From an uncultured Gammaproteobacteria bacterium (GTDB lineage Bacteria; Patescibacteriota; Patescibacteriia; UBA9934), in NCBI GenBank assembly GCA_964569575.1, contig CAZMTL010000004.1, forward strand, positions 8,959-72,958: a stretch of DNA of 64,000 nt, read 5' to 3'. Below, one piece after another: positions 7,899 through 54,748 of this stretch (its first letter is position 1; every line of letters starts with the position of its first letter). Made by a program: the position numbers and the translations under genes. The notes below the pieces were generated by a model. It did no database searches. It was not told the origin of the DNA and saw only the letters and a program-made list of their open reading frames with translations.

Positions 7899-8003
7899 AA
7901 GAAATGGCTACTGAATTAACACACAATAATAGCAGAAAAAAGGCGTTTTGTCAATGTAAACACGAAACCCCCGCCACACACGTGTAGTGCGGCAGGGGTC
8001 AGG

Positions 8004-8288
8004 CTACGAGTCAAACGTCTCGGTGCGAAGCTCCAACCCGTTCCAAACAGGCTGAAAGATCGCATCGTGATCATTTGATCCCTCGCGATAAACTCCAATC
8101 CGTTGACCTTCGGGAAGGATGATCAACAGCTGGCCCTTACGCGGATCGTAGCGAAGAACTACCAGGCCCTCCACTCCTGTCGACCGAATGATCGCTTCCA
8201 CCCGATCGAGCAGGTGAATGGCGGTACACTCGACACCGGCACGGAGTATGAAGCGGATCTCCCGCTGAACAGACTCTGTCAGACGCAC
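8004..8288 (-). CDS. hypothetical protein in GC-rich island (possible frameshifted continuation of 8279..8545)
   Basis: The GTG start overlaps the previous ORF's stop and has no SD, and its frame stays open upstream. Either two coupled small genes or one gene of about 180 aa with a frameshift. Confidence 0.4.
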   Translation of the reverse strand: MRLTESVQREIRFILRAGVECTAIHLLDRVEAIIRSTGVEGLVVLRYDPRKGQLLIILPEGQRIGVYREGSNDHDAIFQPVWNGLELRTETFDS

Positions 8289-8545
8289 TCGCGGAACGTC
8301 GCCTCGTGCATCTGAAGGAACGACTCCAGCGGATCGGGGCTGACGGGCCGAATGGGCCGGCGCACCTTGGATCCATCGATCTCGACAACGATCTCGAACG
8401 ACTCGTCATCGAAGAACACCTCAGCCTCCAGACCGAGCTCGTAGAGAACCCGCTGGACGACGTCCTCGTCGAGCGAATCCTGCTCGAGCAGCTTCACGAT
8501 CACCACTCCAACATCGGCAGACGAACACACGCGCCTTGCGACCAT
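8279..8545 (-). CDS. hypothetical acidic protein in GC-rich island
   Basis: ATG with SD (GGAGAGG) 2-4 nt upstream. GC is about 58% against a background of about 45%. Confidence 0.5.
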   Translation of the reverse strand: MVARRVCSSADVGVVIVKLLEQDSLDEDVVQRVLYELGLEAEVFFDDESFEIVVEIDGSKVRRPIRPVSPDPLESFLQMHEATFRECV

Positions 8546-8686
8546 GACCTCTCCTGAAAAACGGCATTATCGCCTCGAAAAAGACAAATATTCTCTTCTT
8601 CAAGCCAACCAAGAATACAAATGCACTCTTGCTAATAACGAAAGAACATAACAAAAAAATGGCCCTCTGTCAACCAAAAAGCCAAA

Positions 8687-9475
8687 TTACACTCCTAAAT
8701 ACCAACCAAGAATCCATTCTCCAAAAAACATCACGAACACAATAGCGCAGGCCATAAACGTTCCGAATGGTACATGGCTCGAAAGCGCACGCTTCTTACT
8801 AAGCACCAAAAGCAATCCACCAATCCCACCAAAAATATAACTAAACAACAACGCCAACAAACCTAACTGCGGGCCAAGCAAAAACCCCATCAACAACCCC
8901 ATACGCACATCCCCATCACCAACCCACTTCCCTTGCGAAATCAGGTACTGAACGGCAAAAAACGTTCCAATCAGCAATCCTCCCAACACAAACCACACAA
9001 TAGAAGCACCAAGCGCCAAATTGAATATCAAGATAGCCAAAATCGCCGGCACCGAAAACCGATCTAAAATAACCGAAAAACGATAATCATACACAAAGAT
9101 CACCATCAAAAACGACACCACCACAACATCTCGAACAAACAGCAAAATTAATTCGGACGAATCAACGAATTCAGGAATGCCAAACCCAAGCGCCACACGC
9201 AAAAACAACAACGTGGTCAAAATTCCCATTGCAAGCTCGACCGCCGGGTACTGCCACTCAATCACCGTCGCACACGAACGACATCGTCCTCGCAACGAAA
9301 TATAACTCACCACCGGAATCGTATCCAAAAAGGCAATCGGCTCTAAACACGTGTGACAGGTTGATTTCGGTTTTAACAACGCCGCATCTGCCTTTGTGCG
9401 AAAAATAACCACATTCAACAATCCGCCGATCGCAATCCCGAGTAATGCCGAAAGAATAATGCCAAGAACAATCAT
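8687..9475 (-). CDS. pilD: type IV prepilin leader peptidase (A24 family)
   Basis: Zn-binding CHTC...CRSC motif, polytopic membrane topology and a GDGD-containing catalytic region. Confidence 0.85.
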   Translation of the reverse strand: MIVLGIILSALLGIAIGGLLNVVIFRTKADAALLKPKSTCHTCLEPIAFLDTIPVVSYISLRGRCRSCATVIEWQYPAVELAMGILTTLLFLRVALGFGIPEFVDSSELILLFVRDVVVVSFLMVIFVYDYRFSVILDRFSVPAILAILIFNLALGASIVWFVLGGLLIGTFFAVQYLISQGKWVGDGDVRMGLLMGFLLGPQLGLLALLFSYIFGGIGGLLLVLSKKRALSSHVPFGTFMACAIVFVMFFGEWILGWYLGV

Positions 9476-9476
9476 A

Positions 9477-9983: not shown

Positions 9984-9999
9984 ATGCTTTAGTATATCA

Positions 10000-10374: not shown

Positions 10375-10375
10375 A

Positions 10376-11541: not shown

Positions 11542-11949
11542 TCACCGAGCATCTAACGCTTGATTCACATACGCGTCCGCTTCCTTGTTCAATTCACGTC
11601 GTACATGCACAAATCGCGCAACAGAAAATTGACGCGCCAGTTGAATCACCTCTTTATACAATGGCTGCAAGCCCGCATTCTTCACTCGATACTGCCCGTT
11701 GATCTGCTTCACCGCTAATTCCGAGTCCAATCGAACATCAATCTCTTCAAAACCTAATTCGAGCGCCTTACGAAGTCCAAGCACGATCGCCATATACTCC
11801 GCCTGATTATTTGTTCCAACTCCAAGGAATACACCTTCGCCAAACACACGCTCTGTTTTATTTAAATCCGTAAACAAGACGTATCCAGCAGCCGAAGGAC
11901 CTGGATTCCCTCTCGATCCTCCATCTGCAAACATGACTGTATAATTCAT
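11542..11949 (-). CDS. rnhA: ribonuclease HI
   Basis: RNase H motif DGGSRGNPGPSAAG and a C-terminal DEDD residue pattern. Confidence 0.85.
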   Translation of the reverse strand: MNYTVMFADGGSRGNPGPSAAGYVLFTDLNKTERVFGEGVFLGVGTNNQAEYMAIVLGLRKALELGFEEIDVRLDSELAVKQINGQYRVKNAGLQPLYKEVIQLARQFSVARFVHVRRELNKEADAYVNQALDAR

Positions 11950-16684: not shown

Positions 16685-17755
16685 CTAGCCACCAAATTTA
16701 CCAGACCCAGCTTTTGCAATCCTCTTCGCATTTGCCTGCGCCCGTTCACGAGCACTAGCAGGCTTACCACTACGAGCCGAAGGCTCTTCAGGTAACGTAT
16801 CAGCGTTCATATCAAAATGTAATTCAACCTGATTTACCAAACCTTCTAGCTGCGAAGCCCTCTTCTCCAATAGTGATAGCTGTAATTGAGCACTGTTTAA
16901 TTCACGACCAGGAAAAACACGTTTCCACATGCGTTTCATCATGCCTCCTCGTAAATCATCCATTTGCGCACGCAAGTTATCCGCATCCGCTTCTAAAAGA
17001 GGGAGCTTACGAACTGCATCGGCATAAGCTTCGTACGAAATCCCAGTAGCGGCCTCTATGCCCTGCGAAATAAACTGATCTTCATACACATCTACTTCAT
17101 CAACAGTTAATTTACTTTCATCTTCAACTTCATCCAAAGCTCCTGCCTCTACACCAGCAAAATCTCCTGCCCCGAATTCGGGATCCATCTCAACCTTTTT
17201 TGCCTTCACGCCTTCAAGTTCTTCTGATTCAATATTGTTAAAATCATCTTTCTCAAAACCTTGAACTACCTCTTCCTCAGCCAAATCATCATCCTCCTCT
17301 TCATCATCATCTTCCTCTTCCTTATCAGAATCAAAATCATCTTCTTGATCAACGTCATCCAGATCATCTTCATCAAAAAGCGGACCCTCGGTACCAGCAT
17401 CTTCTCCTAATCTCTTTGAGCTCAATTCACCCAAAGCATAAATTGCTAATTCGTGCAGGTCAGCTTCGTCAGGATCTTCCGAATCCGCTAAGTCTTTTTC
17501 AAAATCTGACAACAAACGTCCCGCCAAAGCCGAATCCTCATCATCAAGTGCACTCACATTAAAATCGCGTTGCAAAAGCTCGACGATTCTAACAAGAACT
17601 TCCTGATCCAAATGCTCATCTTCTTCCAAACCATCCGTCAGCGACAAATCGCCCTTCTCTAATGATTTTATAATTTTCTTAAAATCAGAATCTTCCCACG
17701 TCACCTGTTTAACAGCTTCCGCCTCAGGATTAAAACCTCGTACTTCCTTCACCAT
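16685..17755 (-). CDS. hyper-acidic low-complexity hypothetical protein
   Basis: A 356-aa ORF in a coherent gene slot with long Asp/Glu runs (DKEEEDDDEEEDDDLAEEE) and a basic C-terminal tail. Confidence 0.6.
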   Translation of the reverse strand: MVKEVRGFNPEAEAVKQVTWEDSDFKKIIKSLEKGDLSLTDGLEEDEHLDQEVLVRIVELLQRDFNVSALDDEDSALAGRLLSDFEKDLADSEDPDEADLHELAIYALGELSSKRLGEDAGTEGPLFDEDDLDDVDQEDDFDSDKEEEDDDEEEDDDLAEEEVVQGFEKDDFNNIESEELEGVKAKKVEMDPEFGAGDFAGVEAGALDEVEDESKLTVDEVDVYEDQFISQGIEAATGISYEAYADAVRKLPLLEADADNLRAQMDDLRGGMMKRMWKRVFPGRELNSAQLQLSLLEKRASQLEGLVNQVELHFDMNADTLPEEPSARSGKPASARERAQANAKRIAKAGSGKFGG

Positions 17756-17934: not shown

Positions 17935-18192
17935 ATGCAGAACAAGTTATTTGTTGGTAACTTGCCATGGGCTGTAGATAGCGAAAAACTTCGCGACATC
18001 TTCACAGCTTACGGTGAGATCACTGACGCAGTTGTTCTTTCAGACAAATTCACTGGGCGAAGCCGAGGATTTGGATTCGTAGAATTCAAAACTGACGCTG
18101 AAGCAGCAGCAGCTGTAGACGCACTAGATGGAAGCAACCTTGAAGGTCGCGACATCGTAGTAAACGTCGCTCGTGAAAAGACTGAAAGATAA
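17935..18192 (+). CDS. RRM-domain RNA-binding protein
   Basis: RNP2 (LFVGNL) and RNP1 (RGFGFVEF) motifs. Confidence 0.85.
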   Translation: MQNKLFVGNLPWAVDSEKLRDIFTAYGEITDAVVLSDKFTGRSRGFGFVEFKTDAEAAAAVDALDGSNLEGRDIVVNVAREKTER

Positions 18193-18288: not shown

Positions 18289-18362
18289 TCCCGGATCGTC
18301 TAAAGGCAGGACTCCAGTTTCTGGCACTGGCAATCGGGGTTCGAATCCCTGTCCGGGAACCA
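18289..18362 (+). tRNA. tRNA-Gln(CUG)
   Basis: Cloverleaf folded by hand: acceptor UCCCGGA/UCCGGGA, D arm, anticodon stem CCAGU/ACUGG with loop UUCUGGC (anticodon CUG), T arm GGGGUUCGAAUCCCU, and an encoded CCA. Confidence 0.85.
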
Positions 18363-20080: not shown

Positions 20081-20107
20081 TCGCAAAAAGCACCCGAAGG
20101 TGCTTTA
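20081..20107 (-). terminator. intrinsic terminator after the VirD4-like gene
   Basis: AAGCACC-CGAA-GGTGCTT followed by a T-run on the minus strand. It overlaps the stop codon. Confidence 0.5.
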
Positions 20108-22645
20108 AAGCGTTCGCGGATCCGGCTGTTGAGCTACCGGTTTTTTCAATCCAATTCCCGCTCGTAACATAATATCTTTTTCCACAATCGCCTTCGGTCG
20201 GCCATATTCAAGGCGCGAAATCTCTTTCAACGCATCCGCCAGCTGCGGATTTGGCTTCTCGGGCGATTCTGCCTTAAGCGTAAACGGCTTCGCCTGCGCA
20301 TTATCGATAATCATCTTGGCATTCCAAGTAAACTTATCAGTATTCTGCAAATCGTAGCCAGTAAACGTCGGCTCGAACACCTTCGAAAGAATATCGGTGT
20401 CTTCCGGTCCAACGCGCGCCACGAACATATTTCCAACGTTTCCTAACACTGCGTCTCTAATCTCGGTCTTTCCACCATCTTGAACCAATTGCCCCATGTA
20501 CTGGTGAGCTAATACAAGATTTAACTTATACTTTCGAGCTTCGGAAAGGATCGTTGCAATAGAAGGAGTAATAAAGTTTTGGAACTCGTCGATATACAAG
20601 TAAAAATCTTTTCGCTGATCTTCCGGAATATCCGCTCGAGTAAATGCTGCCATCTGCAATTTTGACACAAGAATCAATCCCAGCAAATTCGCGTTCACAT
20701 CTCCAGTTTTTCCTTTTGCCAGGTTCACCAACAAAATCTTGCCTTCATCCATAATTTTACGAAAATCGAACGAAGAACGCTGCTGTCCGATAATATTTCG
20801 CATCATTTCGTTTTCAACGAATCGCCCCACTTTCGAAGTAAGATACCCCATCATTTCCGACTTGTGATAATCGCTGGTGTTATCCATTTCATCTTCCCAG
20901 AACGATCGCACGACAGGATCTTTAATCTTCGCTCGCCATCGTTGCTGAAAATCCTTATCCGCAACCATACGCGGAATCTCCACAATCGTTCCCGGGTCAC
21001 TTAAATCCGACATCAACGTCAACATGTAGTTTCGCATTTGATGTTCAAACATCGGCCCAATCATTTCGGGCGGGAACAACATGTAAAAAATCGAAATCAT
21101 TTCCTGCACCGCAAAATCGCGCATGTTTTCGTTTGGCGCATCCAACATATTTAACCCCATCGGACGATCCATATCCGAAGGATTAAAGTAAATAACATCA
21201 TCAATTCGGTGTTTTGGAATCGTTCCCAAAATGTCATCAACCAAATCTCCATGCGGATCAATAACCGCAATTCCCTTTCCATTCTGAATATCCTGATTCG
21301 CCATGTAGCGCAAAAAGTATGATTTTCCAGAACCAGTTTTACCGATAATATAGCTATGCCGTCGGCGATCCGCGTCCGTCATAAAAATGTCGGTTCGACG
21401 TCCACGGTACATATTGTACCCAACGTGCAAACCAGACGTAGGCACGCCTGTAGGTGCTGGAGCCGTTCGAGCCTCCATCCATCGAATATTCGGAGTCTCG
21501 GTCGTCGCAAGCGGCAAATGCCACAAGCTCGCCATTTCTTCCGTATTCAAAATCATTTTATACTTTGAATCAAACTGACGGAAAATAAACGCATTAATCA
21601 AACGCGTCTTACGTGGAAGTTCCTTCGAAAATGAATTTCCAAACTCATAAATATTAAATTGTCCGTACGCCTGCAAAATATTGTTCAAATTCGCCTGTGC
21701 TGTCTGAGCAGTAATCCCCGAACACACAATACGCACATTCACCTCCATCGCCGCCTTACTTAACTTCCCTTCAATTCCCTGCAACATCTTGTCCTCGGCC
21801 TGGGACAATCGTTTTTCGGCCTGTTGAGCCTTCAACTTGTCCTGCGAATCCTTCGACGTCACCATTTTGGTCCATCCATCTCCACCCTTCTTCGCTTCTT
21901 CAAACGAAAGACCTTTCTGCATATTCTTCACCACTCGGCGACCCATCGCGCGCCAACCATTACTCACCGGACGAATCATATACTGAATCGCCGCCCCTTC
22001 GCCTGCAGGCACCTTCGAAATAGCGTTCGTGATTCCGTTCAATGGATCCGAATCAAGCTCCTTATACGTCTTAATCGGCAAAAAATTCTCGCGTTTCAAC
22101 TTCAAATACGCCCCAACAATCACCCCTTTTGGTGAAAACATGTTGTAATCCTCGATATGCTCAAACGCGGCATTTGGATACTGAGCATGCATCTGCTGCT
22201 CCATAAATTCCCTCATATACGAAGGAACCGTCATGTAAAACGTAATCAAATGATTGTGCGCAACAATTTCGAGCGCTAACTGATCTTGCCGCCCACGCCA
22301 CCAAGCACCAAACCCACCCTGCGGCTTCTGTCCGCCAATAGCAGAATAAAATGTCTCCGCAATCGCGATCGTCTCCTGTGTATCTGCCAAACGCTCAACG
22401 CCCTTCACGTCATCTTCTGTCTGAAATTTCGGCACCGTTACCATCAATGTAATCGGTTTGTACGCCCCTTCTCCAAGAATATTTTTCTTCTGCGCGTTCG
22501 AACGAAGCAAAAAGACAATAAATACCGTCAATAAAATGAAGCCCAGAACAAACAACGCCAACATAATCACATCGCTCTGCAATGAAGCCTGCGGCAATGT
22601 GCCATTACTTACCAATAGTGACGTCTGCAATAATCCTCCTAACAT
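20105..22645 (-). CDS. VirD4/TraG/TraD-like coupling-protein-family ATPase with N-terminal TM segment
   Basis: Walker A GKTGSGKS, IAVIDPHGDL and a Walker B region typical of T4SS coupling proteins (HerA/FtsK superfamily). Confidence 0.65.
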   Translation of the reverse strand: MLGGLLQTSLLVSNGTLPQASLQSDVIMLALFVLGFILLTVFIVFLLRSNAQKKNILGEGAYKPITLMVTVPKFQTEDDVKGVERLADTQETIAIAETFYSAIGGQKPQGGFGAWWRGRQDQLALEIVAHNHLITFYMTVPSYMREFMEQQMHAQYPNAAFEHIEDYNMFSPKGVIVGAYLKLKRENFLPIKTYKELDSDPLNGITNAISKVPAGEGAAIQYMIRPVSNGWRAMGRRVVKNMQKGLSFEEAKKGGDGWTKMVTSKDSQDKLKAQQAEKRLSQAEDKMLQGIEGKLSKAAMEVNVRIVCSGITAQTAQANLNNILQAYGQFNIYEFGNSFSKELPRKTRLINAFIFRQFDSKYKMILNTEEMASLWHLPLATTETPNIRWMEARTAPAPTGVPTSGLHVGYNMYRGRRTDIFMTDADRRRHSYIIGKTGSGKSYFLRYMANQDIQNGKGIAVIDPHGDLVDDILGTIPKHRIDDVIYFNPSDMDRPMGLNMLDAPNENMRDFAVQEMISIFYMLFPPEMIGPMFEHQMRNYMLTLMSDLSDPGTIVEIPRMVADKDFQQRWRAKIKDPVVRSFWEDEMDNTSDYHKSEMMGYLTSKVGRFVENEMMRNIIGQQRSSFDFRKIMDEGKILLVNLAKGKTGDVNANLLGLILVSKLQMAAFTRADIPEDQRKDFYLYIDEFQNFITPSIATILSEARKYKLNLVLAHQYMGQLVQDGGKTEIRDAVLGNVGNMFVARVGPEDTDILSKVFEPTFTGYDLQNTDKFTWNAKMIIDNAQAKPFTLKAESPEKPNPQLADALKEISRLEYGRPKAIVEKDIMLRAGIGLKKPVAQQPDPRTL

Positions 22646-38457: not shown

Positions 38458-38552
38458 AGATGCTTGTAGAAAGTAGACCTCCCTACTCGCTAAAGATGAC
38501 TTTCGTCACCAACTAGTTAAAAAGAACAAGCGGTTGTTTCCCGTCAGAAAAT

Positions 38553-38756
38553 CTGACAGCTGCCACAAATAATCGCACTACTCAGAGGCTTCTCCGAACA
38601 TCCGTCTTGCGACGGAAACTCTCGGAGAAGTCTCTCTCCAGCGATGACTCATGACAGGGGAAATTTCCCAAAACCACTTGTAAAAAAATACGACGAAAAA
38701 TACATTTCGTCTCAAGGGGCGTGACAGAAGCTAAATTTCCAAACAATCTGGAAATT
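38553..38756. promoter_or_regulatory. palindrome/hairpin-rich divergent control region between mraZ and the pseudo-Nudix gene
   Basis: Five hairpins or palindromes occur in about 200 nt. GTCAGA-AAA-TCTGAC is at 38553-67. A nested hairpin CTTCTCCGA...CCGTC-TTGC-GACGG...TCGGAGAAG is at 38589-38630. The perfect 12-mer GGGAAATTTCCC is at 38658-69. GACGAAA-N6-TTTCGTC is at 38692-711. AATTTCCA-N7-TGGAAATT is at 38734-56. Confidence 0.35.
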
Positions 38757-38883
38757 CCCCACTTTCTGCCTCGCTGCTTCCACTTTACCCCACTTCCGCC
38801 CCACCAGCAACCACCCTTCACCTAAACCTGTGGATAATTGACCAAACAAGTTAAAAACGCTACATTTCGAACGCAAAGGAGGC

Positions 38884-39444
38884 GTGATGCCTGACGACAT
38901 GGGACGACCAACCGCAGAGGAGATCCTGACGGATGGCGCGTACCTGAACGTGGACGCGGTACGTATGTACGAACTTCTCCAAAGGTGCATCGAGGAAACG
39001 GGAATGCTGCCTCAGTGGTACTTCGAGCACATGCCTCGAGTATTCCCTCAGGCCTGCATCGAACTGGCGGTCATGACCGTCCGATCCGGCAAGCGGCACA
39101 TCTTCCTGCTTCAACGACCAGACAACGATACGCACTGGCCGCGTCAGTGGCACATGCCCGGTACGACACTGTACCCAAAGGACAGCGAAGAAACGATGTG
39201 GAAACGGCTACTGGCATCCGAGCTCGGACAACTCCTCCGGCAAGAGATGTTCCGTCTCGCCTTCAACCACATCAGCACACGAGAAGAACGGGAACGCGGC
39301 GAGTGCATGCACGCCGTCTACACGGGACGCATCGGCACCGCATCGAAGAAGCTGGAACGCTTCGGAACCTTCTTTCCGGTCGATCAACTCCCGGAAGAAG
39401 TCATCCAACACCATCGAACCATACTCACCAGGCTCACCCACTAA
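38884..39444 (+). CDS. degenerate-Nudix-fold protein A (GC-rich copy)
   Basis: SD AAAGGAGG 5 nt before the ATG. It is a paralog of the next gene at about 45% identity, with a Nudix-like layout but a degraded Nudix box. GC is about 60%. Confidence 0.6.
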   Translation: MMPDDMGRPTAEEILTDGAYLNVDAVRMYELLQRCIEETGMLPQWYFEHMPRVFPQACIELAVMTVRSGKRHIFLLQRPDNDTHWPRQWHMPGTTLYPKDSEETMWKRLLASELGQLLRQEMFRLAFNHISTREERERGECMHAVYTGRIGTASKKLERFGTFFPVDQLPEEVIQHHRTILTRLTH

Positions 39445-39462: not shown

Positions 39463-39490
39463 GGAACGCCACCTGGCGTTCCTTTCGTTT
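39463..39490 (+). terminator. intrinsic terminator
   Basis: GGAACGCCA-CC-TGGCGTTCC followed by TTTCGTTT. Confidence 0.5.
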
Positions 39491-39509: not shown

Positions 39510-40013
39510 ATGAAATCTATTGATCTATCAAACATCATTCTCTCGCTCGAAAAGTACAGCTCAGAAAACAACGGCCAAATCCCACGTGATTGGTTCGAAA
39601 AAATGCCCATCTACTTCCCTCAAGCGGCTATCGAGCTAGGGATCATTAAAGAGATCAATAACTCTCATCACATCTTCCTCGCTCAAAGGCCAGCAGACGA
39701 TCCATATTGGCCCAGCGAATGGCACCTTCCGGGCACAGTCCTCCGCCACACAGACACAGAAAAAACAATTTGGAAAAGACTACTTTCTGATGAAGTGGAT
39801 GGGATAATACAACCTTCCGAAGCAAAACTGATCGATACACACATTTCGAGCAAACAAGATCGCGAACGCGGCGCGTGCGTTCACTCAATCTATCTCGCAA
39901 AAACAAATAAAGACATCAAAAGTGGTAAATTCTTCCCGATCATCGATTTACCGAAAAATACAATCAAGCACCACCTGCCACTCATCGAAAAAATTAAAAA
40001 ATCCCTAAAATAA
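39510..40013 (+). CDS. degenerate-Nudix-fold protein B (host-GC copy)
   Basis: HIFLAQRPADDPYWPSEWHLPGTVLRHTDTEKTIWKRLLSDEVDGI fits a Nudix scaffold with a substituted GX5EX7REUXEEXGU box. The C-terminal DRERGACVHSIY...FFPIIDLP region is shared with protein A. Confidence 0.6.
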   Translation: MKSIDLSNIILSLEKYSSENNGQIPRDWFEKMPIYFPQAAIELGIIKEINNSHHIFLAQRPADDPYWPSEWHLPGTVLRHTDTEKTIWKRLLSDEVDGIIQPSEAKLIDTHISSKQDRERGACVHSIYLAKTNKDIKSGKFFPIIDLPKNTIKHHLPLIEKIKKSLK

Positions 40014-40047: not shown

Positions 40048-40437
40048 CTAGTGGTAGAACTCACGATGCTCGTGCACTGGTAGATCGAACACGAACGGAT
40101 CGTTCACGAACGACACTTCGATCTGACTTCGCAGATCACGAAGAGAACGTTCGAAGACTTCGATTCCACCAATCTGCTCAAGTAGCTCTTGAACATCTGG
40201 CAGTTGCCAACCCGGGAAATCTTCAGTCCAGTCGTCATTCGCTACGGCTGCGTAAAAGCACCACACCGATTCACGCGTACCGAACAGATGATACTCCCTA
40301 CCCTCCAACTCCCCCGTAGCCACGCTCTCGAGACTGAAATACACCAGTTCGAGCAGGTCGAGCATGCTCTTCTCGTGTTCATTCAGCAGCTCCACGAAAT
40401 GCAGAACAATGTGAACCAGGATCACGCATTCCTCCAA
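40048..40437 (-). CDS. hypothetical acidic protein
   Basis: ORF convergent with the Nudix pair, with no motifs. Its start is uncertain. Confidence 0.4.
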   Translation of the reverse strand: MEECVILVHIVLHFVELLNEHEKSMLDLLELVYFSLESVATGELEGREYHLFGTRESVWCFYAAVANDDWTEDFPGWQLPDVQELLEQIGGIEVFERSLRDLRSQIEVSFVNDPFVFDLPVHEHREFYH

Positions 40438-41944: not shown

Positions 41945-44473
41945 CTACTTCACATTCTTCTTCCTCAAATAAGGCTTCAAATACTGTCCCGTATAACTCT
42001 TAGCCGAACGAGCAATATCCTCCGGAGTCCCTTCTGCAACAACCATTCCTCCACCAACTCCACCCTCTGGACCCATGTCGATTAACCAGTCAGCCGTTTT
42101 GATCACATCCAAATTGTGTTCAATGATCAAAACCGTATTTCCTTTCTCGACCAAACGATGCAACACCTCAAGTAATGTCTTAATATCTTCGAAGTGAAGT
42201 CCTGTCGTCGGCTCGTCGAGTAAATAAAGTGTTCGGCCCGTATTTCGCTTCGCAAGTTCAGAAGCCAACTTCACACGCTGAGCCTCACCACCCGAAAGCG
42301 TATTTGCAGACTGACCTAGCTTCAAATAACCAAGCCCAACGCTCACGAGTGTTACCAACTTATCGTGAACAGAAGGAATGTCCTTAAAAAACTCCGTTGC
42401 TTCCTCGATCGTCATCTCCAAAACTTGAAAAATATTCTTTTCTTTAAATTCAACCTCCAACGTTTCACGATTAAATCGTCGCCCTTTACACACATCACAC
42501 TGCACATACACCGTTGGCAAGAAATGCATTTCGATCGCAATTTCCCCATGCCCCTCACAATGATCACAACGTCCACCCGCCACGTTAAAGCTAAAACGAC
42601 CAGTTTTATATCCACGGAACTTCGCTTCATCCGTCGTAGCAAACAAATCACGAATCGGCGTCCAAGCTCCGGTATAAGTAGCTGGGTTAGATCTAGACGT
42701 TCGTCCAATCGGAGATTGATCCATCAAAATTGCCTTATCGATGTACTCAATGCCCAAAACAGATTTATGAGCACCAGGCTTCCCTTTGCTGCCGTACAAC
42801 TTTTTCGCAATCGCTTTGTAAGTCACTTCCAACATCAAGGTCGACTTCCCGCTTCCAGAAACACCTGTAATACAAACCATGCGTCGAAGCGGAATATCAA
42901 CATCTACATTCTTCAAATTGTTCTCGGTAGCTCCCCGAACCTTAATCGCATCCTTCCCAACCTTTCTGCGCTCGGTAGGAACCGGAATAACGCGATCACC
43001 CCGCAGATACGCCGCGGTCAGCGATTTCTTATCTTCAAAAATCTCGGGCGTTGGTCCGGCAGCAACAATCTCCCCTCCGTGCACACCAGCACTCGGTCCA
43101 ACCTCGACCATGTAATCCGATCGCCGAATGGTATCTTCGTCATGCTCTACAACCAACACGGTATTCCCCAAATCTCGCAACGATTCAAGCGTATTAATCA
43201 ACTGATCGTTATCACGTTGATGCAGACCAATCGTTGGTTCATCAAGTACATACAAAGCACCAACCAAACGCGAACCAATTTGCGAAGCTAAACGAATACG
43301 TTGCGCTTCACCCCCAGAAAGCGTCCCGGCCTTACGATCGAGCGTTAAATAATGCAACCCAACATCCAACATAAACGTCAATCGGCTTTCGATCTCTTTC
43401 AATACGGTTCCAGCAATTTCCAACCCACGCTCGTCTAACGCGATATGTAGAATGAAATCTGCGGCTTCCGAAATCGTTTTCGCTGTGTACTGAACAATAT
43501 TTTCACCACCAATAAGCACACTCAACGCCTCCTTGCGCAATCGCTTCCCATCACACGCGGGACAAATTTCTTCAGAGAAAAGCTCGAGCGTTCCTAACCC
43601 AGTACACGCTTCACAAGCTCCATAGGGACTATTGAACGAAAAAAGTCGTGGCTCGATTTCTGGAAACGAAAATCCACAATTTACACAACTAAATTTAGTA
43701 GAAAACAACCGCTCTTCCCCTGACGCGTACACCACATTCACCAAATCCTGTCCGCGATCAACCGCATTTTCGAGCGCTTCATTCAAGCGTTGACGCGTGT
43801 CCTTGTCCGGATCCTTTAGGCTAACCTGTGGAATAACATCGATAACCACTTCGATCGTATGCTGCTTATAGCGAGAAAGCTTAATTTCTTCACTCAAACG
43901 ATGCATCTTGCCATCTACCCGCACCTTTGCGAATCCTGAATTATACAAATCATACAATAACTGATAATAATTCCCCTTTCGACCACGAACAACCGGAGCC
44001 AAAATTTGAATTTCGCCAGAAGGAATCGCCTTTTCCTTTGCATTTTGCTTCATCAACAAATCAGAAATTTCATCAATCGTTAAACGCTCAATTCTCGATT
44101 TACAATCAGGACAATGCGCCTCACCAACACGCGCGTAAAGAACACGAAGGTAATCGTAAATTTCCGTCACCGTCGCCACAGTTGAACGCGGGTTTCGAGA
44201 ATGTGCTTTTTGATCAATCGAAATAGCTGGTGACAACCCTTCGATTTCGTCTACATCCGGCTTTTGCATCTGACCCAAAAATTGCCGTGCATAAGCAGAA
44301 AGCGATTCGATATAACGACGCTGCCCTTCCGCAAAAATCGTATCAAAAGCGAGGGAAGATTTTCCGCTTCCCGACACGCCAGTAAAACAAATAAGTTGAT
44401 TTCGAGGCAATTCGAGTGAAACATTTTTTAAGTTATGCTCACGCGCACCCTTGATTGTAATTTTTTCTTTCAT
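41945..44473 (-). CDS. uvrA: excinuclease ABC subunit A
   Basis: Two ABC ATPase modules and Zn fingers. The start is [17 protein letters not shown]. The ORF track extends the frame to 44899, and that extension is read-through of the GC-rich intergenic element. Confidence 0.95.
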
Positions 44474-45221
44474 ATATAATTGTTGAGATGTTGATAGCGT
44501 TCTCGTGGTGAGATCGGCGTCGCATCGGCGAAAGGAGGCCCCCATGTCTCGTGGAGCAGTGAACGCTGGACGAACGCGTCCAGCCGAGACCACGCGTCGC
44601 CCGGCAATGCAGGTGCATTGCCGGGACCGATCGGGCGCACGACGCGCTTCGAACGGAGGTGAGCAGTCTCGATCCGTCGTGCCCGGCGTGACCACCTCCG
44701 GAAACGGAGACGGTCGAAGCCCGCGAGCGCGCGAACAGCGCTGCGGTGGTGGTGGGCTCGCGCCCATCCGAGGAGCTTCACCCGACGAAGAGTCCAGGTG
44801 CCCGGGGGCGTCGGAACGGGCGAACCCGGGCACGCCAACGCAGACACGAAGGCCAGCGTCCGGCCGAGGAGGTGAGGAGTCTCGATCCATCACGCCCAAC
44901 TACGCGAGCGATTCCGCAACCGGAAACGCTCGCGAACAGCTGTACTGTGGCAACGGGGGACTTTCCTCCACACCAGGATCTGGACACGACTACCGTGCAC
45001 CGGGCTTCGGAGGCAAGAAGCACATCAAGGACCCTCGAGGAAAGAAGCGCGGCGACAACCCGCGAGGAATTCCGCATCTCCCTCGACGAATTCGACTGCC
45101 CACGCACCCGGGCATGCAATGGACTCCGGCCAAGAAGCCTTAGCCGAACACAATTGACGTACAGACGAAACCCGCCAGGCGATCGTCATCTGCCCTGCAA
45201 AAGCAGGGCCTTTCATTTTTT
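44474..45221 (+). ncRNA. candidate large structured RNA or structured DNA element in the uvrB-uvrA spacer (about 65% GC)
   Basis: Perfect hairpins occur at 12 bp (CCCGGCAATGCA-GG-TGCATTGCCGGG, 44600-25), 8 bp (GCTGGACG-AACG-CGTCCAGC) and 9 bp (GTGCCCGGG...CCCGGGCAC). There are two GAAA-tetraloop hairpins (CTCCG-GAAA-CGGAG and CGAGCG...CCGGAAA-CGCTCG). An imperfect module is repeated twice (GGAGGTGAGSAGTCTCGATCC...CCGGAAACG...CGCGAACAGC). A TATAAT-like box lies at the 5' end and a plus-strand terminator at the 3' end. Strand and RNA nature are inferred. Confidence 0.4.
45192..45221 (+). terminator. plus-strand intrinsic terminator
   Basis: GCCCTGC-AAAA-GCAGGGC followed by CTTTCATTTTTT. The T-run overlaps the uvrB stop codon. 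Confidence 0.55.
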
Positions 45222-47270: not shown

Positions 47271-47435
47271 AACAAAATTGCCCGACTCCACGCTCTACTA
47301 CAAAGTAGATGACGCTTTTGGGATCGGGATCGTTCGTAAATTGTAAAACCAGCATAGCACACTTAAAGAAGAAAACAAAAACGCGCCCCTTCTTGCAAAG
47401 TGAGCGCGCAGCATGCAGTGAAGCATGAATTCCTC

Positions 47436-47645
47436 CTATTCGTCTTCGGTAGTGTGGCGACGATTACCACGAGTGGTGCGGACGTATCCGCGTTTAGAGT
47501 GATACCCGCCGCCATTACGACGGCGAAGTGCCACCAGATCGGTACGCCGACCCTGCGGAAGCACGACAACGATCCGAAGATCATCCTCGCGCTTCTGTTC
47601 CTTGGTCCTACCAACAGGCTTCGAAGCCTTCCGCTTCTTCGCCAT
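47436..47645 (-). CDS. small highly basic protein (69 aa) in GC-rich cassette
   Basis: Perfect SD AGGAGGTG 4 nt before the ATG. Lys/Arg-rich (MAKKRKASKPVGRTKEQKRED...RRRNGGGYHSKRG), suggesting nucleic-acid binding. Confidence 0.5.
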   Translation of the reverse strand: MAKKRKASKPVGRTKEQKREDDLRIVVVLPQGRRTDLVALRRRNGGGYHSKRGYVRTTRGNRRHTTEDE

Positions 47646-47662
47646 CTCTCACCTCCTGGTGC

Positions 47663-47872
47663 TCACAACCACGTGAGCACGTACATCTTCACGCGATGAA
47701 ATGCGCTCGAGCGCACCACCGAGTGGACCACCTCCGGAAGCTGAGGCTCCCAGTACAGGGAGTTGAGCTTGCCAGTGAGCTCGACCGTCCCTTCCAGGAA
47801 CGACCGAACCCGACCGGGCTTGAGATCGAACTTCTCGAGAATGAATCCCGAGATCAAACCCCATAGAATCAT
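47663..47872 (-). CDS. small membrane protein (69 aa from the ATG) in GC-rich cassette
   Basis: N-terminal TM helix (MILWGLISGFIL) and SD GGAGGG upstream. The ORF track extends the frame to a TTG at 47887. Confidence 0.4.
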   Translation of the reverse strand: MILWGLISGFILEKFDLKPGRVRSFLEGTVELTGKLNSLYWEPQLPEVVHSVVRSSAFHRVKMYVLTWL

Positions 47873-47951
47873 GATCCCTCCAATCAAGACACACCACAGT
47901 ATACCAAAAAAGAGGCTTTGTCAACCTCTTTTCTTCTCTACCACCTACACT

Positions 47952-49469: not shown

Positions 49470-49506
49470 AAACAAACCCACCAAGCAGCAGCTTGGTGGG
49501 TTTGTT
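49470..49506. terminator. bidirectional intrinsic terminator
   Basis: CCCACCAAGC-AGCA-GCTTGGTGGG flanked by A-rich and T-rich runs. Confidence 0.55.
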
Positions 49507-49580
49507 GGTTCCCAGACAGGGATTCGAACCCCGATTCTCAGGACCAAAACCTGATGTCCTGCCCTTAGACGATCTGGGAA
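49506..49580 (-). tRNA. tRNA-Gln(UUG)
   Basis: Reverse complement folds as acceptor UCCCAGA/UCUGGGA, anticodon stem UCAGG/CCUGA with loop UUUUGGU (anticodon UUG), the same T arm as the other tRNA-Gln, and an encoded CCA. Confidence 0.85.
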
Positions 49581-51646: not shown

Positions 51647-53839
51647 TTGGGATATATGCAAGAATTACAGATCAAATCAGCAAAACTTGCTTCACAGGCT
51701 GAACGCAAAGAACAAGTACTCGAATCGATCCTCCTTCCATTCGAGCATCTGCCAGGATCTGTCTTCGGCGTACTCTTTATCGAAGGTCAATTAAATGAGC
51801 ATCGGGCAGAAATGGCGGCGATCATTTTTGAACAACTACAACTACTTCAAGCAATAGAAGCAAGCGCAAACGTACCACGTCGCTTTGAACAGCTTCTTCA
51901 ACAAATCAATCAAGAATTGCAAGTACTTCAGCAAAAAAATCCAAAAGTACAAATCGAACAACTGCACGCCATTTTGGGAACTCGTGTAAAAAATCAACTA
52001 TTTCTAAGTGGAACAGGATTTTTGCACGCGCTGTTCATGCACCGAACAGCACAACAACGCTATTCGATTTACCAACTAGACAAGCAATTACAAGAAGGCG
52101 AATTTAATCCAGAAAAACCATTCATCACCGTACTAGACGGCGAACTACACCCAGGCGATGTCTTCTACCTTTCAACCCCCTTGGATCCAAAAGAAATTTC
52201 GATCGGCGAACTACAAGACATTCTAGTCACACTTCCCCCGTCAGGTGCCCTAAAACGGATAGAACAACATGTTCATCGCGACAAAGGCTATGCAGCTGTT
52301 GCTTTTCAAATTCAAGAACCCGAAACACAAACGACTCACAAAAAAATCAACCCGCTCTCGTCCATCACCGAACTCACCCAAACACAAGAAAAAACAACCG
52401 CACTCTTAAGCGAACAAGGAACTGACGTAGTAGGTCGCCTACAAAAAATGGCACAACCACTAATGAAAAAACTCGCCTCTCCAGGGAAGAACGATACTAA
52501 GTCCGTGCTAAAACGCATCGCGAAAATGTTGGTAAAAGCCCTTCTCTTTGTGACTTCAGTTACCGTCAGCATAGTGAAAACAATCCTAACCGCAATCAAA
52601 AAAGCAATCGAACTCACAAAAGAAAAACGAAGCAAATCTGCCGTATCAAACGATTCAGACGCAACGCTTCCGCAAACCGACGAAGCATCAGACTCAACGA
52701 AGCGTTCGGTGTTCCAAAAAATAGCAGCACTTTCAACGCTACAAAAATACGCCATCGGTGGAGTCATTTTATTAATCATCAGTATCGTAATCGTGCTTCT
52801 ATTTGCCTTTTCTGGAAACAAACAAAAAAATCCCGAAATTGATATAAACGAAACAGCACGACAAATCGAAGAACAAATCAACGCAGCTGAAGCAAGCTTG
52901 ATTTACGGCGACCAAGAACAGGCTCAAAGCTTCCTTACTCAAGCTCGAGCACTTCTAGACAGCATCGAGAAAAAAGAGAAAAACCAAGAAGCAATCGCAC
53001 AGCTAGAACAATCAATCGAAACCATCGAAGCAAAAGCTCGTGGAATCACCATGCCAGAACTAACAGAATTGCAAGGACTAAGCGCAACTCTTGGCAACGC
53101 TCCAGCATCGAACATCATTTATCACAACAACACCGTATTTGTAACAAGCGAAACAAATACCGTAGCGTCGTTTAGCGAATTAAACAATTCGTGGATCAAC
53201 GAAAACGTCACCATCGGAAGTATCGCGGCTTCCAAACGTCTACAAACAGAGGGAGCAAATATTCTCGTGCTAGATGACCAAAACCGCCTCGGACGAGCAA
53301 ACATTACCGCAAAAACGCTCAACCCCCTGGTTTCAGGAACACAAAGCCTGACCGACGTACAAGATATCTTCGTCTACAATTCTTCTGTGTACGCGCTCAC
53401 AAACACAACGAAACAAGTCATTCGCATGCGAGCACAAGGCGAAAACTACGAAGCGGGAACATCGTGGATTACAGCAACGACTGAAGAATTGGGTGAATTA
53501 CGATCACTCGCCATTGATGGATCCGTCTACATTCTAGGACCGGACAAGGTGTACGAATTCCTAAGCGGAAGTCAGCAAGCATTCGCGATCACAAATCTAG
53601 AACCCGCACTAGCAAATGCAACAAAAATCTGGACAAACGAAGCGAGTAATCACCTCTACATCCTAGAAGCCGAACAAAAACGAATCGTCGTACTAGACAA
53701 ATCTGGCGTCGTTGTAAGCCAGTATCAGCACAACGAGCTACAAAACGCCCTAGACTTTACCGTAAACGAGGCAGGAAACACCATTTACTTCACAACCGAA
53801 AACAACGCGTACGCATTTACAGCCGAACACCTTCTTTAA
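51647..53839 (+). CDS. large hypothetical membrane protein
   Basis: 730 aa with a central TM helix (IGGVILLIISIVIVLLFAF) and a C-terminal beta-rich region. Confidence 0.5.
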   Translation: MGYMQELQIKSAKLASQAERKEQVLESILLPFEHLPGSVFGVLFIEGQLNEHRAEMAAIIFEQLQLLQAIEASANVPRRFEQLLQQINQELQVLQQKNPKVQIEQLHAILGTRVKNQLFLSGTGFLHALFMHRTAQQRYSIYQLDKQLQEGEFNPEKPFITVLDGELHPGDVFYLSTPLDPKEISIGELQDILVTLPPSGALKRIEQHVHRDKGYAAVAFQIQEPETQTTHKKINPLSSITELTQTQEKTTALLSEQGTDVVGRLQKMAQPLMKKLASPGKNDTKSVLKRIAKMLVKALLFVTSVTVSIVKTILTAIKKAIELTKEKRSKSAVSNDSDATLPQTDEASDSTKRSVFQKIAALSTLQKYAIGGVILLIISIVIVLLFAFSGNKQKNPEIDINETARQIEEQINAAEASLIYGDQEQAQSFLTQARALLDSIEKKEKNQEAIAQLEQSIETIEAKARGITMPELTELQGLSATLGNAPASNIIYHNNTVFVTSETNTVASFSELNNSWINENVTIGSIAASKRLQTEGANILVLDDQNRLGRANITAKTLNPLVSGTQSLTDVQDIFVYNSSVYALTNTTKQVIRMRAQGENYEAGTSWITATTEELGELRSLAIDGSVYILGPDKVYEFLSGSQQAFAITNLEPALANATKIWTNEASNHLYILEAEQKRIVVLDKSGVVVSQYQHNELQNALDFTVNEAGNTIYFTTENNAYAFTAEHLL

Positions 53840-53846
53840 AAACAAA

Positions 53847-53870
53847 GACCCCGTACACGTGTACGAGGTC
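53847..53870. terminator. near-perfect 24-nt palindrome GACCcCGTACACGTGTACGaGGTC (terminator-like)
   Basis: On the minus strand it is followed by TTTGTTTT, downstream of the GC-rich ORF. Confidence 0.5.
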
Positions 53871-53895
53871 CGAGTGACGCCTCAGGTTGAAGCGA

Positions 53896-54681
53896 TCACG
53901 AGTCCGGGCTAGAGGTTCGCGGAAGTCCTGCTGACAGACGGGTCATTACCTCGGGAGGAAACGAAGCTGGCTGATCGAGCCTCATACCTCCTCCGCCGGC
54001 GGTGATACGAAGCCTACCAAGCCGCAACAGACGCAACTCCCGTCGAGCGAGCGCCACCAGACGAACACCGTCTTCCAGATACCCTTCGTAGCGACGAATG
54101 GTGCCTTCGAGCGAAATTCCTTGACGAAGGCACTCAACCACCCATTCTGCGCAGATTGACGGAGGCAGCCGAGGAACACGCGTGAAGAATTCTACGACCT
54201 TCGACCAGTCCATCAGATGTTCCTGGAAGTGCTGCTGCACATGTTCCGGAACCTCCAACAAGGCCGATCGACGAGCGCAGACAGCTGAGACGATGGACCG
54301 GTTGAGCAGATCTTTATCAGCGGTATTCTGACCTGCTCGACACAGCGCATCGATGATCTTCTTCACATACCCAGGCAATTCGCCAGGGTACTTCTTGTGC
54401 ACCCCTGATTCCGCAAGCGCACTCAGAACTGCATAACGCGTCTCCTGACACGGAAGCAGCTTCTCCCACCTACGTACCGCCGAAAGCACCGCACGTCGTG
54501 GAAGCATCGGCAAGTCACACTGTACTGCTCGGGCATGCGCGACAATCACGTCGATGACGTCCACTTCTTCACGCGTCAAAAACCACTTGGTCGACACATA
54601 ACGACGCGCCGAGCGCGCATATTGATCGAGAGCCTCCTTGGCCAGTTGTTCAAGGTTGATCGAAACATCAATCCACTGCAT
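53896..54681 (-). CDS. hypothetical protein in GC-rich island (about 57% GC)
   Basis: 261-aa ORF with ATG and GAGGAG 9 nt upstream, and no motifs. Confidence 0.5.
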   Translation of the reverse strand: MQWIDVSINLEQLAKEALDQYARSARRYVSTKWFLTREEVDVIDVIVAHARAVQCDLPMLPRRAVLSAVRRWEKLLPCQETRYAVLSALAESGVHKKYPGELPGYVKKIIDALCRAGQNTADKDLLNRSIVSAVCARRSALLEVPEHVQQHFQEHLMDWSKVVEFFTRVPRLPPSICAEWVVECLRQGISLEGTIRRYEGYLEDGVRLVALARRELRLLRLGRLRITAGGGGMRLDQPASFPPEVMTRLSAGLPRTSSPDS

Positions 54682-54748
54682 GTGGAAAATCTCCTCACGG
54701 ACCGCAGGATGCTACAGGAAAAAGAAAACTTGGTCAATAAACCAAGCT

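Follow-up and report, generated by a model that had tools for sequence, protein, structure and literature searches.

We analyzed a 64,000-nucleotide stretch of metagenome-assembled DNA (contig CAZMTL010000004.1, positions 8,959 to 72,958; referred to here as the window, with position 1 at its first letter) that carries six short GC-rich islands between housekeeping operons. The genes next to these islands, which are numbered in order of position, are ligA, pilD, mraZ, uvrC, uvrA, uvrB, rplJL, recR, and rplU. The identities assigned to ligA, mraZ, uvrA, uvrB, rplU, and rplJL in an earlier reading of this DNA (the original prediction) were borne out. As judged from sequence signals, each island is a self-contained unit composed of a predicted sigma-70-like promoter site, one or two small open reading frames (ORFs; eight in total), and a rho-independent terminator. 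Repeated, independent gain of accessory genes resembling phage morons, from a GC-richer origin, is the best available reading for most of the islands, and we hold it with moderate confidence.

Composition and predicted anatomy of the islands

Six GC-rich segments on a background of about 45% GC had been predicted, and all six were recovered by 400-bp sliding-window analysis and by per-ORF GC content. The mean GC content of the window was 0.460, and the 400-bp windows peaked at 0.58 in island 1 (8001-8600), 0.55 to 0.585 in island 2 (38801-39400; maximum, 39001-39400), 0.60 to 0.67 in island 3 (44401-45200; maximum, 44601-45000), 0.58 in island 4 (47401-47800), 0.55 to 0.57 in island 5 (53801-54600; maximum, 53801-54200), and 0.53 to 0.535 in island 6 (59801-60400; maximum, 60001-60400). 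The GC contents of the eight island ORFs were 0.54 to 0.66, compared with 0.453 ± 0.024 (maximum, 0.52) for the 61 other ORFs (z = 3.4 to 8.3). In 100-bp windows, the island edges were sharp and matched the ORF borders; only the ORFs and the terminator stems were GC-rich, with the predicted promoters and 5' leaders in AT-rich DNA. In a crude scan of 132 unrelated loci, many showed stretches of 300 bp or more with GC content raised by 0.09 or more, at a rate of roughly one per 10 kb. The number of peaks is therefore unremarkable, and it is their association with orphan genes at junctions that stands out.

The excess extended beyond third codon positions. GC content at the first position (GC1) was above that of core genes in all eight island ORFs, and GC content at the second position (GC2) was above it in five. 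Core genes averaged 0.55/0.37/0.44 for GC1, GC2, and the third position (GC3), compared with 0.66/0.45/0.57 in island 5 and 0.62/0.46/0.53 in island 6, and the coding pattern of GC1 > GC2 was present in every island but island 3. Arg/(Arg+Lys) was 0.67 to 0.92 in seven of the island ORFs and 0.50 in the remaining one (core genes, about 0.5). The window itself is strongly biased in strand: the minus strand carries 59 of its 69 ORFs, a negative GC skew runs along the whole length without a switch, and minus-strand genes favor G+T at third codon positions (native minus-strand genes: G3, 0.31 to 0.33; C3, 0.11 to 0.13; T3, 0.32 to 0.38). Islands 5 and 6 had GC3 values below GC1 and carried this host-type third-position skew, of which there was little in the first ORFs of islands 1 and 4 (GC3, 0.77 to 0.80).

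Promoter-like sites and hairpin/U-tract terminators were correctly oriented at all six units (promoter-like hits numbered 17 over the whole region, compared with 16.9 in shuffled sequences). Shine-Dalgarno motifs of the GGAGG type were found upstream of most island ORFs, those of island 6 and ORF b of island 1 not being among them.

Island 1 would be read from the minus strand. Its promoter-like site (8645-8673; TTGACA-17-TATGTT, with TG before the second hexamer), reported by the promoter scan, lies in AT-rich DNA, and GC content upstream of the ORF falls to about 0.36 (100-bp windows). It precedes ORF a (8279-8545; 88 amino acids [aa]; GC, 0.61; GC3, 0.80), the predicted product of which is acidic, and ORF b (8004-8288; 94 aa; GTG start; GC, 0.56; GC1/2/3, 0.67/0.39/0.61), both of them orphans. 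ORF a forms a singleton cluster in the NCBI and Logan collections, and ORF b was called as a gene on Logan contig L174. The last 10 nt of ORF a, its stop included, are shared with the start of ORF b, an arrangement suggestive of translational coupling. The predicted intrinsic terminator (7966-8000; -28.2 kcal/mol; z = -4.4) has a 14-bp stem and a UUUCGUGUUU tail, and its loop region contains ACACGTGT.

Islands 2 and 3 are on the plus strand. In island 2, a promoter-like site read by eye and not reported by the scan (38838-38866; TTGACC-17-TACATT) is followed by the Shine-Dalgarno motif AAGGAGG (38876-38882), a 185-aa ORF for a predicted NUDIX-fold protein (38887-39444; GC, 0.58; GC3, 0.70), and a putative intrinsic terminator (39463-39490; GGAACGCC-ACCU-GGCGUUCC then UUUCGUUU; fold z = -2.9). 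The extent first given to this island was too large, the initial 300 bp (38560-38880) being not GC-rich and corresponding to the conserved mraZ promoter region. In island 3, the promoter scan reported a site (44451-44480; TTGATT-18-TATAAT) that shares sequence with the 5' end of the oppositely oriented uvrA. A Shine-Dalgarno motif (AAGGAGG; 44532-44538) lies 5 nt before the ATG of a 199-codon ORF that forms the island body (44544-45143; GC, 0.66, with 100-bp windows up to 0.73; GC1/2/3, 0.67/0.67/0.63). An intrinsic terminator (45192-45221; GCCCUGC-AAAA-GCAGGGC then CUUUCAUUUUUU) was predicted by both the terminator scan and folding.

The remaining units are on the minus strand. The promoter-like site of island 4 (47898-47924) was read by eye and consists of TTGACA, a 15-nt spacer (the scan takes 16 to 18 nt), and TGgTATACT, an extended -10 element. 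The two island 4 ORFs, which are 17 nt apart and each preceded by GGAGG, are predicted to encode orphans of 69 aa: ORF a (47663-47872; GC3, 0.77; called on Logan contig L173) with a hydrophobic N terminus, and ORF b (47436-47645; GC3, 0.57; a singleton cluster in NCBI and Logan) with a very basic product. The terminator-like hairpin at 47382-47409, followed by UUUUUGUUUU (fold z = -1.95), has an interior loop and was therefore missed by the consensus scan.

Island 5 has a scan-reported promoter-like site (54709-54737; TTGACC-17-TAGCAT), an ORF for a 261-aa, predicted all-alpha, strict orphan (53896-54681), and a terminator found by the terminator scan (53846-53871; 11-bp stem around ACGU then UUUGUUUUU; fold z = -4.7). 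This 261-codon frame is the sole long ORF in any frame (others, 74 aa or less), and we estimate the chance of such a frame at 56% GC at less than 1 in 10,000. At island 6, read along the minus strand, the rplU terminator (60437-60450) is followed closely by the scan-reported promoter-like site (60399-60428; TTGTTA-18-TATATT). The 136-aa orphan ORF (59984-60394) is located between the convergent recR and rplU, and the scan placed a terminator at 59962-59981 (8-bp stem then UUAUUUUUUU; fold z = -3.1).

The original prediction held that the islands encode only orphan proteins or none. The first part stands for seven of the eight proteins, which had no Pfam, NCBIfam, PHROG, or PADLOC match (the exception being the NUDIX-fold protein of island 2). 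The second part does not, given that every island holds at least one ORF, five with coding-type GC1 > GC2; protein-coding and RNA readings are both open only for island 3. Gene calls in NCBI and/or Logan were found by cluster look-up for six of the eight island ORFs, in addition to the Logan call for island 1 ORF b. A tblastn search of the concatenated orphan proteins against phage (50,697 records) and plasmid collections gave no match. Three orphans, both island 1 proteins among them, were compared with PDB sequences and gave nothing apart from a lone E = 0.28 match to an Argonaute MID-PIWI chain, which we judged to be noise. The island 5 protein matched only itself among 5.8 billion clustered proteins and, by full HMMER, among 1.84 billion representatives, and its single-sequence AlphaFold2 model was unusable (predicted local distance difference test [pLDDT], 50). 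The repeat of island 3, scanned against IMG/VR, also matched nothing.

Type II toxin-antitoxin pairs would fit the two-ORF layout of islands 1 and 4, but none of the four proteins matched Pfam, NCBIfam, or PADLOC. Known structured RNA families were not seen in the islands; Rfam at gathering thresholds and ARAGORN detected only two tRNA-Gln genes over the window (18289-18362, plus strand, and 49506-49579, minus strand; anticodons CTG and TTG), neither of which adjoins an island.

Folding of the ORF regions was assessed with mononucleotide shuffles (n = 15), so that the z scores are rough. The regions 8004-8545 (z = -5.0), 44544-45143 (z = -5.5), and 47436-47872 (z = -6.6) were far stabler than the shuffles; islands 2, 5, and 6 and four native control regions gave z scores of -0.6 to -2.9. 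In islands 1 and 4, an inverted-repeat search turned up nothing beyond the palindrome of the island 1 terminator and two weak pairs with a spacing of about 100 nt.

Upstream of its real ATG (44473), the uvrA frame (41945-44899, minus strand) has no stop for 142 codons and reaches into island 3, so that a gene caller could add a false N-terminal extension to UvrA. UvrA itself is 842 aa long; in its NCBIfam match, residues 298-837 align to model positions 403-942, and about 100 positions of the model are skipped.

Island sites in related genomes

The host of the window can be placed, by protein similarity, among the Patescibacteria (candidate phyla radiation [CPR]) near Uhrbacteria and Magasanikbacteria, because the nearest named relatives were "Candidatus Uhrbacteria" and Magasanikbacteria metagenome-assembled genomes (MAGs; UvrB, 63 to 67% identity; DnaB, 69 to 72%). 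A UvrB scan of GTDB species representatives and JGI metagenomes gave 65 to 67% identity at best and no island sequence. Syntenic contigs were reached via homologs of the NUDIX protein and DnaB, followed by contig look-ups. The relatives thus compared were L163/L164, L168/L169, L165, L170, L171, L172, L175, and a 617-kb JGI contig available as a gene list without DNA. L163/L164 and L168/L169 were treated as a single organism sampled in two runs; their identities to the window were 85% for UvrA, 77% for UvrB, 87% for MraZ, and 84% for DnaB. At 4-fold degenerate sites of uvrA, uvrB, uvrC, and dnaB, identity to the relatives was 0.29 to 0.36, and composition alone predicts 0.25 to 0.29. The lineages compared are old, and their neutral sites are saturated.

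Island 6 was absent from the recR-rplU gap in five related genomes. This gap measured 40 bp in L168/L169, 14 bp in L170, 133 bp in L175, and 335 bp in L171, where it was AT-rich and no ORF of at least 60 aa was called. In L172, the gap was occupied by a 122-aa ORF with the orientation and layout of island 6 (GC3, 0.71 versus 0.52; +0.18 over the local core mean), the product of which was unrelated to the island 6 protein (BLASTP E = 1.6). At the island 3 site, uvrA and uvrB abut in the JGI relative, as read from its gene list only. The uvrA-uvrB gap of L163 (425 bp; GC, 0.57 to 0.60 versus 0.51) held a small ORF with a promoter-like site and a terminator, all on the strand that island 3 also uses, against the direction of the neighbors; the gap had no similarity to island 3. 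At least two sites (recR-rplU and uvrA-uvrB) are therefore empty or differently filled in relatives. At the island 4 site, the JGI gene list had a 350-bp gap without a called gene, and L163 had an unrelated gene after uvrB. The original prediction that gene order is broken at every island failed at island 2, which occupies the same mraZ-uvrC position in relatives.

The GC3 of Pfam-bearing core genes was tight in the relatives (standard deviation, 0.03 to 0.04), and a subset of small ORFs lay 0.18 to 0.43 above the local core mean. In L163, these were the NUDIX gene, the product of which is discussed below, a 103-aa ORF (+0.20), and a 110-aa ORF (+0.22). L170, a relative with 48.5% GC, carries a pentapeptide-repeat ORF between secA and hpf (1282-1722, plus strand; GC, 0.68; GC3, 0.91; +0.43) that was absent from L168, and L171 carries a 224-aa ORF between folD and a permease gene (GC3, 0.67 versus 0.33; +0.34) that was absent from L168, L170, L172, and L175. 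A stretch with a GC content of 0.62 is located in the gap beside secA in L175. In the approximately 160 kb examined, each atypical ORF was GC-richer than its surroundings, and none was AT-richer. Other Pfam-less ORFs of the window and the relatives kept native GC contents, so that orphan status by itself is no predictor of GC-richness.

Several further observations concern ORFs of this kind. The stored gene call of L170 fuses the pentapeptide-repeat stretch into an opposite-strand secA call. Large ORFs with native GC contents and without a Pfam domain are present in the window at 51647-53839 (plus strand; 730 aa; also without an NCBIfam match), 28780-30369 (minus strand; 529 aa), and 16685-17755 (minus strand; 356 aa). 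A milder seventh outlier, a 129-aa orphan (40048-40437, minus strand; GC, 0.52; GC3, 0.61), is located between the NUDIX pair described below and uvrC; the corresponding junction of L163 holds an unrelated GC-rich ORF of 103 aa (GC, 0.61).

The island 2 protein matched the Pfam NUDIX family (PF00293; 1.1e-5; 25.9 bits versus a cutoff of 21.1). Its AlphaFold2 model (pLDDT, 73) gave 134 PDB matches at E ≤ 0.001 in Foldseek, and nearly all of the 50 listed were NUDIX-domain proteins; the best structural matches among those listed were the NUDIX domains of AraR, NrtR, MutT, and MutY. The canonical Nudix box is GX5EX7REUXEEXGU. As read from the alignment, the island 2 protein has G92-x8-E101-x5-R107-L-L-A-S-E112-L-G114 in its place, with changed spacing and two of the three REUXEE glutamates replaced. 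The model and the alignment thus point to a NUDIX-fold protein with a degenerate catalytic motif. It has a family-specific N-terminal helical extension (W-x-F-E-x-M-P-x-x-F-P-Q-A) and no attached DNA-binding domain.

Positional orthologs of the island 2 gene were found at mraZ-uvrC in L163/L164, L165, and the JGI contig, and the gene is divergent from mraZ in the relatives too. The protein is 51% and 44% identical to the two relatives' proteins at this site (P0003 and P0004). The gene was GC-rich wherever DNA exists: GC3 was 0.70 in the window, 0.94 in L163 (local value, 0.54; gene GC, 0.66 versus 0.51), and 0.58 in L165 (local values, 0.32 to 0.49; gene GC, 0.52 versus 0.43), against a local core of 0.32 to 0.54 overall. 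A tandem paralog in the window (39510-40013, plus strand; 167 aa) is 41% identical to the island 2 protein and has a native composition (GC, 0.43; GC3, 0.47). The relatives carry a single copy at this site, to which the paralog (42% and 41% identity) is less close than the GC-rich copy. A word-indexed search of 5.8 billion proteins detected two other family members, both at mraZ-uvrC of this clade, although the index missed the paralog in the window; the family alignment scanned against IMG/VR gave nothing.

The spacer between mraZ and island 2 is conserved in its own right. A three-way alignment delimited a putative mraZ (dcw) regulatory region at 38641-38837 (GC, 0.38 to 0.52) with blocks that are 91 to 97% identical in L163 and L165. 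Within the mraZ upstream region (38526-38837; counterparts, 9380-9700 in L163 and 1950-2110 in L165), the blocks GAACAAGCGGTTG and GACTCATGACAGGGGAAATTTCCC were near-invariant. GTGGGG/GTGG repeats on the mraZ (minus) strand at 38641-38837 are presumably MraZ boxes, and a DnaA-box-like word (TGTGGATAA) is located at 38829-38837. The mraZ gene itself (38026-38457) was 0.40 to 0.52 identical at 4-fold sites in all three pairwise comparisons, compared with 0.25 to 0.36 for other core genes and 0.43 for ftsL (28 sites), and its GC3 was raised (0.57 versus 0.44). These values suggest nucleotide-level constraint on mraZ. The raised synonymous conservation in all three comparisons argues against a recent exchange of mraZ between one pair of genomes.

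Elsewhere in the window, the 846-aa product of 20105-22645 (minus strand), in which coupling-protein domains of the VirD4/TrwB type and HerA-like ATPase domains were recognized, probably belongs to the type IV secretion/conjugation-like machinery of Patescibacteria, which is discussed in PMC12102498. The window also encodes a small RNA-binding protein with an RRM domain (17935-18192, plus strand) and a stand-alone RNase H/RVT_3-like protein (11542-11949, minus strand).

Origin of the islands

The raised GC1 and GC2, the replacement of Lys by Arg, and the patchy presence of the units favor import from GC-richer sources. The units would have been added singly and at different times, the likely route being DNA uptake followed by illegitimate or homology-facilitated recombination. 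Their source would be of higher GC content and not yet sampled, with GC-richer relatives or the gene pool of phages or mobile elements as candidates. Such units may persist because no operon is disrupted by them and because their expression signals are either brought along or present at the site, which is how phage morons accrete. Residence times would differ, with GC3 running from 0.80 down to 0.53 and with native third-position skew in islands 5 and 6, as under the amelioration argument reportedly made by Lawrence and Ochman in 1997. Amelioration is apparent in islands 5 and 6 but not in the first ORFs of islands 1 and 4, which would fit a series of acquisitions of different ages.

Horizontal gene transfer, for the most part among Patescibacteria, has been reported to be common (PMC12455944), and Saccharibacteria, another CPR lineage, are naturally competent (PMC10633639). 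Given this competence and the prepilin peptidase, PilM-like protein, and VirD4-like coupling protein encoded in the window, an uptake route may be available to the host.

Several points weigh against such gains. No donor or homolog was found for any orphan in very large databases, and all island proteins on record are singletons at 90% identity. The GC excess ends at the ORF borders, and the 5' flanks have only about 36 to 45% GC; the units are therefore unlike a fragment imported from a GC-rich genome together with its own promoter. Paired ORFs of one island differ in GC3 (0.80 versus 0.61 in island 1 and 0.77 versus 0.57 in island 4). The island 2 gene is old, syntenic, and GC3-rich in three genomes despite saturated 4-fold sites. 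In addition, the sites compared were those of islands 2, 3, 4, and 6, no comparable locus being available for islands 1 and 5, and the comparison at island 4 consisted of one gene list (JGI) and the edge of L163. The repeated acquisition from a GC-rich pool put forward in the original prediction is thus partly supported, by the absence of island 6 from five relatives, the empty or different island 3 site, the raised GC1 and GC2, and the GC3-rich ORFs that relatives have at other junctions, but not by island 2 or by any identifiable donor.

The case of island 2 leads to a different explanation, which we consider rather unlikely for the islands in general: that fast-evolving accessory genes specific to the clade are kept GC-rich by a gene-local force, their GC content then being no mark of foreign origin. 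The force might be GC-biased gene conversion where junctions are prone to recombination, or selection acting on codon choice or on the stability or structure of the mRNA, and such genes may circulate within the clade only. The original prediction had named the same GC-rich island in relatives as the sign of an old compositional quirk, and this is what was found for island 2 and not for island 6. In the window, L163/L164, and L165 alike, the NUDIX-fold gene keeps one position next to conserved promoter blocks. Its GC3 is high in lineages in which the flanking neutral sites are saturated, and it is therefore not the fading trace of one ancestral import. Either GC-richer alleles have replaced the gene at this locus time and again, or its GC content is upheld by a gene-local force; the GC3 series of 0.94, 0.70, 0.58, and 0.47 (the last being the native-looking tandem copy) would fit repeated overwriting. 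Maintenance is also consistent with the restriction of GC-richness to ORFs within AT-rich flanks, with the approximately 3-fold faster evolution of the NUDIX protein relative to its neighbors (44 to 51% versus 74 to 87% identity), and with the folding of islands 1, 3, and 4, which is better than that of shuffles (z = -5 to -6.6). The two further family members, both at this locus, point weakly to a small family, the index having missed the paralog.

However, there is no known mechanism for a +0.4 shift of GC3 in one bacterial gene. The raised GC1 in all eight ORFs and GC2 in five fit a long GC-rich history better than third-position selection alone, and the combination of GC3 < GC1 and native skew in islands 5 and 6 is the classic amelioration pattern. 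Other Pfam-less clade-specific ORFs are native in GC content, and the tandem NUDIX paralog is fully native in composition. That the operon-junction accessory genes of this CPR clade are actively kept GC-rich, with the islands forming a compositional compartment and not foreign DNA, is in our view distinctly unlikely; it would build on the NUDIX GC excess at one syntenic locus, with GC3 values up to 0.94 versus about 0.54 in the core.

RNA genes typically form GC-rich islands within AT-rich genomes, and the GC-rich segments might thus be genes for structured noncoding RNAs, an explanation that is serious for island 3 only and very unlikely overall. The GC1/2/3 values of island 3 are flat in every frame, and four of the six frames contain long ORFs. 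The island contains several perfect hairpins of 8 to 14 bp (minimum free energy z = -4.4), has its own predicted promoter and terminator on the strand opposite to its neighbors, and has no recorded gene call for the 199-codon ORF, the exact ORF being absent from the protein collection. The z score is equal on both strands, however, which points to DNA-level palindromes and not to a stranded RNA. No Rfam family was found in any island, and even at E ≤ 10 island 3 gave only noise with bit scores far below threshold. The strong Shine-Dalgarno motif before its ATG and the spacing of its repeat copies (213 and 201 nt, both multiples of 3) also argue for translation, and the other five islands have clear coding signatures. 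The predicted island 3 product would be very basic, rich in Arg, Gly, Ser, and Pro, and of low complexity with an internal repeat; on these sequence features, we lean slightly toward a low-complexity basic protein.

The original prediction also raised a family of small nonautonomous insertion cassettes with shared edge motifs. As copies of such cassettes (MITE-like or integron-cassette-like), the islands would share terminal motifs and be mobilized in trans, an explanation that now seems extremely improbable. Both motifs do exist where they had been reported, i.e., ACACGTGT-core hairpins at two island ends and ACGAAACCC(CC)GCCA at two. They have another explanation. The island 1 terminator contains both (ACGAAACCCCCGCCA and ACACGTGTAGTG), ACGAAACCCCCGCCA at 7962 being the reverse complement of its 3' arm and U-tract; the CGTACACGTGTACG hairpin is the island 5 terminator; and the second ACGAAACCCGCCA motif (45165-45179) sits in a weak hairpin just upstream of the island 3 terminator. 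U-tracts follow the hairpins on the ORF strand, as in intrinsic terminators, and the stems of these predicted terminators are the sole inverted repeats at island ends. Two of the four ACACGTGT copies in the window lie outside islands (9347 and 63007). The longest exact word common to the 12 island edges was 10 nt, which is the commonest value in random edge sets; about two-thirds of these sets reached a shared word of at least 10 nt in a permutation test. Island-versus-island BLAST detected only chance words of 9 to 14 nt and no other DNA or protein similarity. No terminal inverted repeats or target duplications were found by this BLAST, by repeat finding in islands 1, 3, and 4, or by reading of the island 6 junctions, a dedicated search of all 12 junctions not having been made. 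Domain scans detected no transposase or integrase in any substantial ORF of the window, in agreement with the original prediction. One and the same site, moreover, has different insert contents in different genomes. The islands are most probably not transposable cassettes.

The probability that short pieces of GC-rich organisms were misjoined or misbinned into a CPR contig is minimal, although the source is a metagenome-assembled contig (88.6 kb in NCBI). Each of the six inserts sits exactly in an intergenic gap, framed by correctly oriented promoter-like and terminator signals. The junctions were also recovered in Logan contigs, which come from a separately run assembly of SRR15237806, quite possibly built from the reads behind the original assembly: L001 spans both junctions of island 5 (100% identity over 911 bp); L173 crosses both junctions of island 4 (DUF362, an NMNAT-like gene, both island 4 ORFs, and uvrB); L174 reproduces island 1 with its downstream junction; and L162 covers the rplU side of island 6 (100% identical over the part covered). 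These contigs, the synteny of island 2 in three other assemblies, and the host-like third-position skew of islands 5 and 6 make an assembly chimera unlikely.

Comparison with known systems and significance

A moron is defined as a phage ORF with its own promoter and factor-independent terminator, located between conserved phage genes (PMC3594210). The island units resemble morons in that a promoter and such a terminator are predicted for each, in their placement between genes that are adjacent in relatives (island 6, and island 3 by gene list only), in a GC content differing from that of their neighbors, and in being unrelated to what relatives hold at the same place. They differ in their setting, a cellular chromosome with housekeeping operons on either side (ligA, dcw, uvrABC, rplJL, and recR/rplU), with no phage genes nearby, no PHROG match, and no match in the 50,697 phage records, and island 2 has not been added when compared with the relatives, which have it as well. 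Given the cellular chromosome and the lack of phage context, we would by analogy call the units moron-like rather than morons proper.

Islets and acquired ORFans with atypical composition that ameliorates over time were reportedly described by Lawrence and Ochman in 1997 and by Daubin and Ochman in 2004. The islands are likewise short, lineage-restricted genes without homologs and with atypical composition at all codon positions, and in islands 5 and 6 GC3 nears the host value faster than do GC1 and GC2. Unlike classical ORFans, which are usually AT-richer, the atypical ORFs of the window and of five relatives are all GC-richer. The GC excess kept by island 2 across saturated lineages is also not predicted by simple amelioration.

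With integron cassettes and MITEs (miniature inverted-repeat transposable elements), the islands share a size of 0.4 to 0.9 kb, one or two ORFs, and a 3' hairpin, but within the 64-kb window they have no integrase, array, shared recombination site, or second copy. The 3' hairpins are 20 to 35 nt long and have U-tracts and, by inspection, no GTTRRRY core of the attC kind. Classical genomic islands are larger than 10 kb, with an integrase, a tRNA-adjacent position, and direct repeats; the islands are 0.45 to 0.8 kb long, are not tRNA-adjacent, and have no mobility gene, and no flanking direct repeats were detected in the repeat searches run (islands 1, 3, and 4; island-versus-island BLAST). The island 2 protein resembles noncatalytic NUDIX domains (those of the AraR and NrtR regulators and the MutY C-terminal domain) in fold and in the loss of two of three glutamates; unlike AraR and NrtR, it has no DNA-binding domain and has an N-terminal helical extension. 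Taken as a whole, the islands look like ordinary piecemeal gene gain, i.e., a further example of known genome dynamics and not a new mobile element. The genuine small puzzle of the analysis is the NUDIX-fold gene, which is GC-rich in anciently diverged genomes.

If the islands were acquired as proposed, a streamlined CPR genome of about 1 Mb would still be gaining genes, in the form of expression-ready ORFs that settle at inter-operon junctions without mobility machinery, and the junctions would be reused with different cargo across lineages. In the annotation of CPR MAGs, GC3 outliers would then flag accessory genes and could help to avoid miscalls such as an extended uvrA. If gene-specific GC content is indeed maintained, as the NUDIX gene may indicate, the finding would be of general interest for the evolution of base composition in bacteria.

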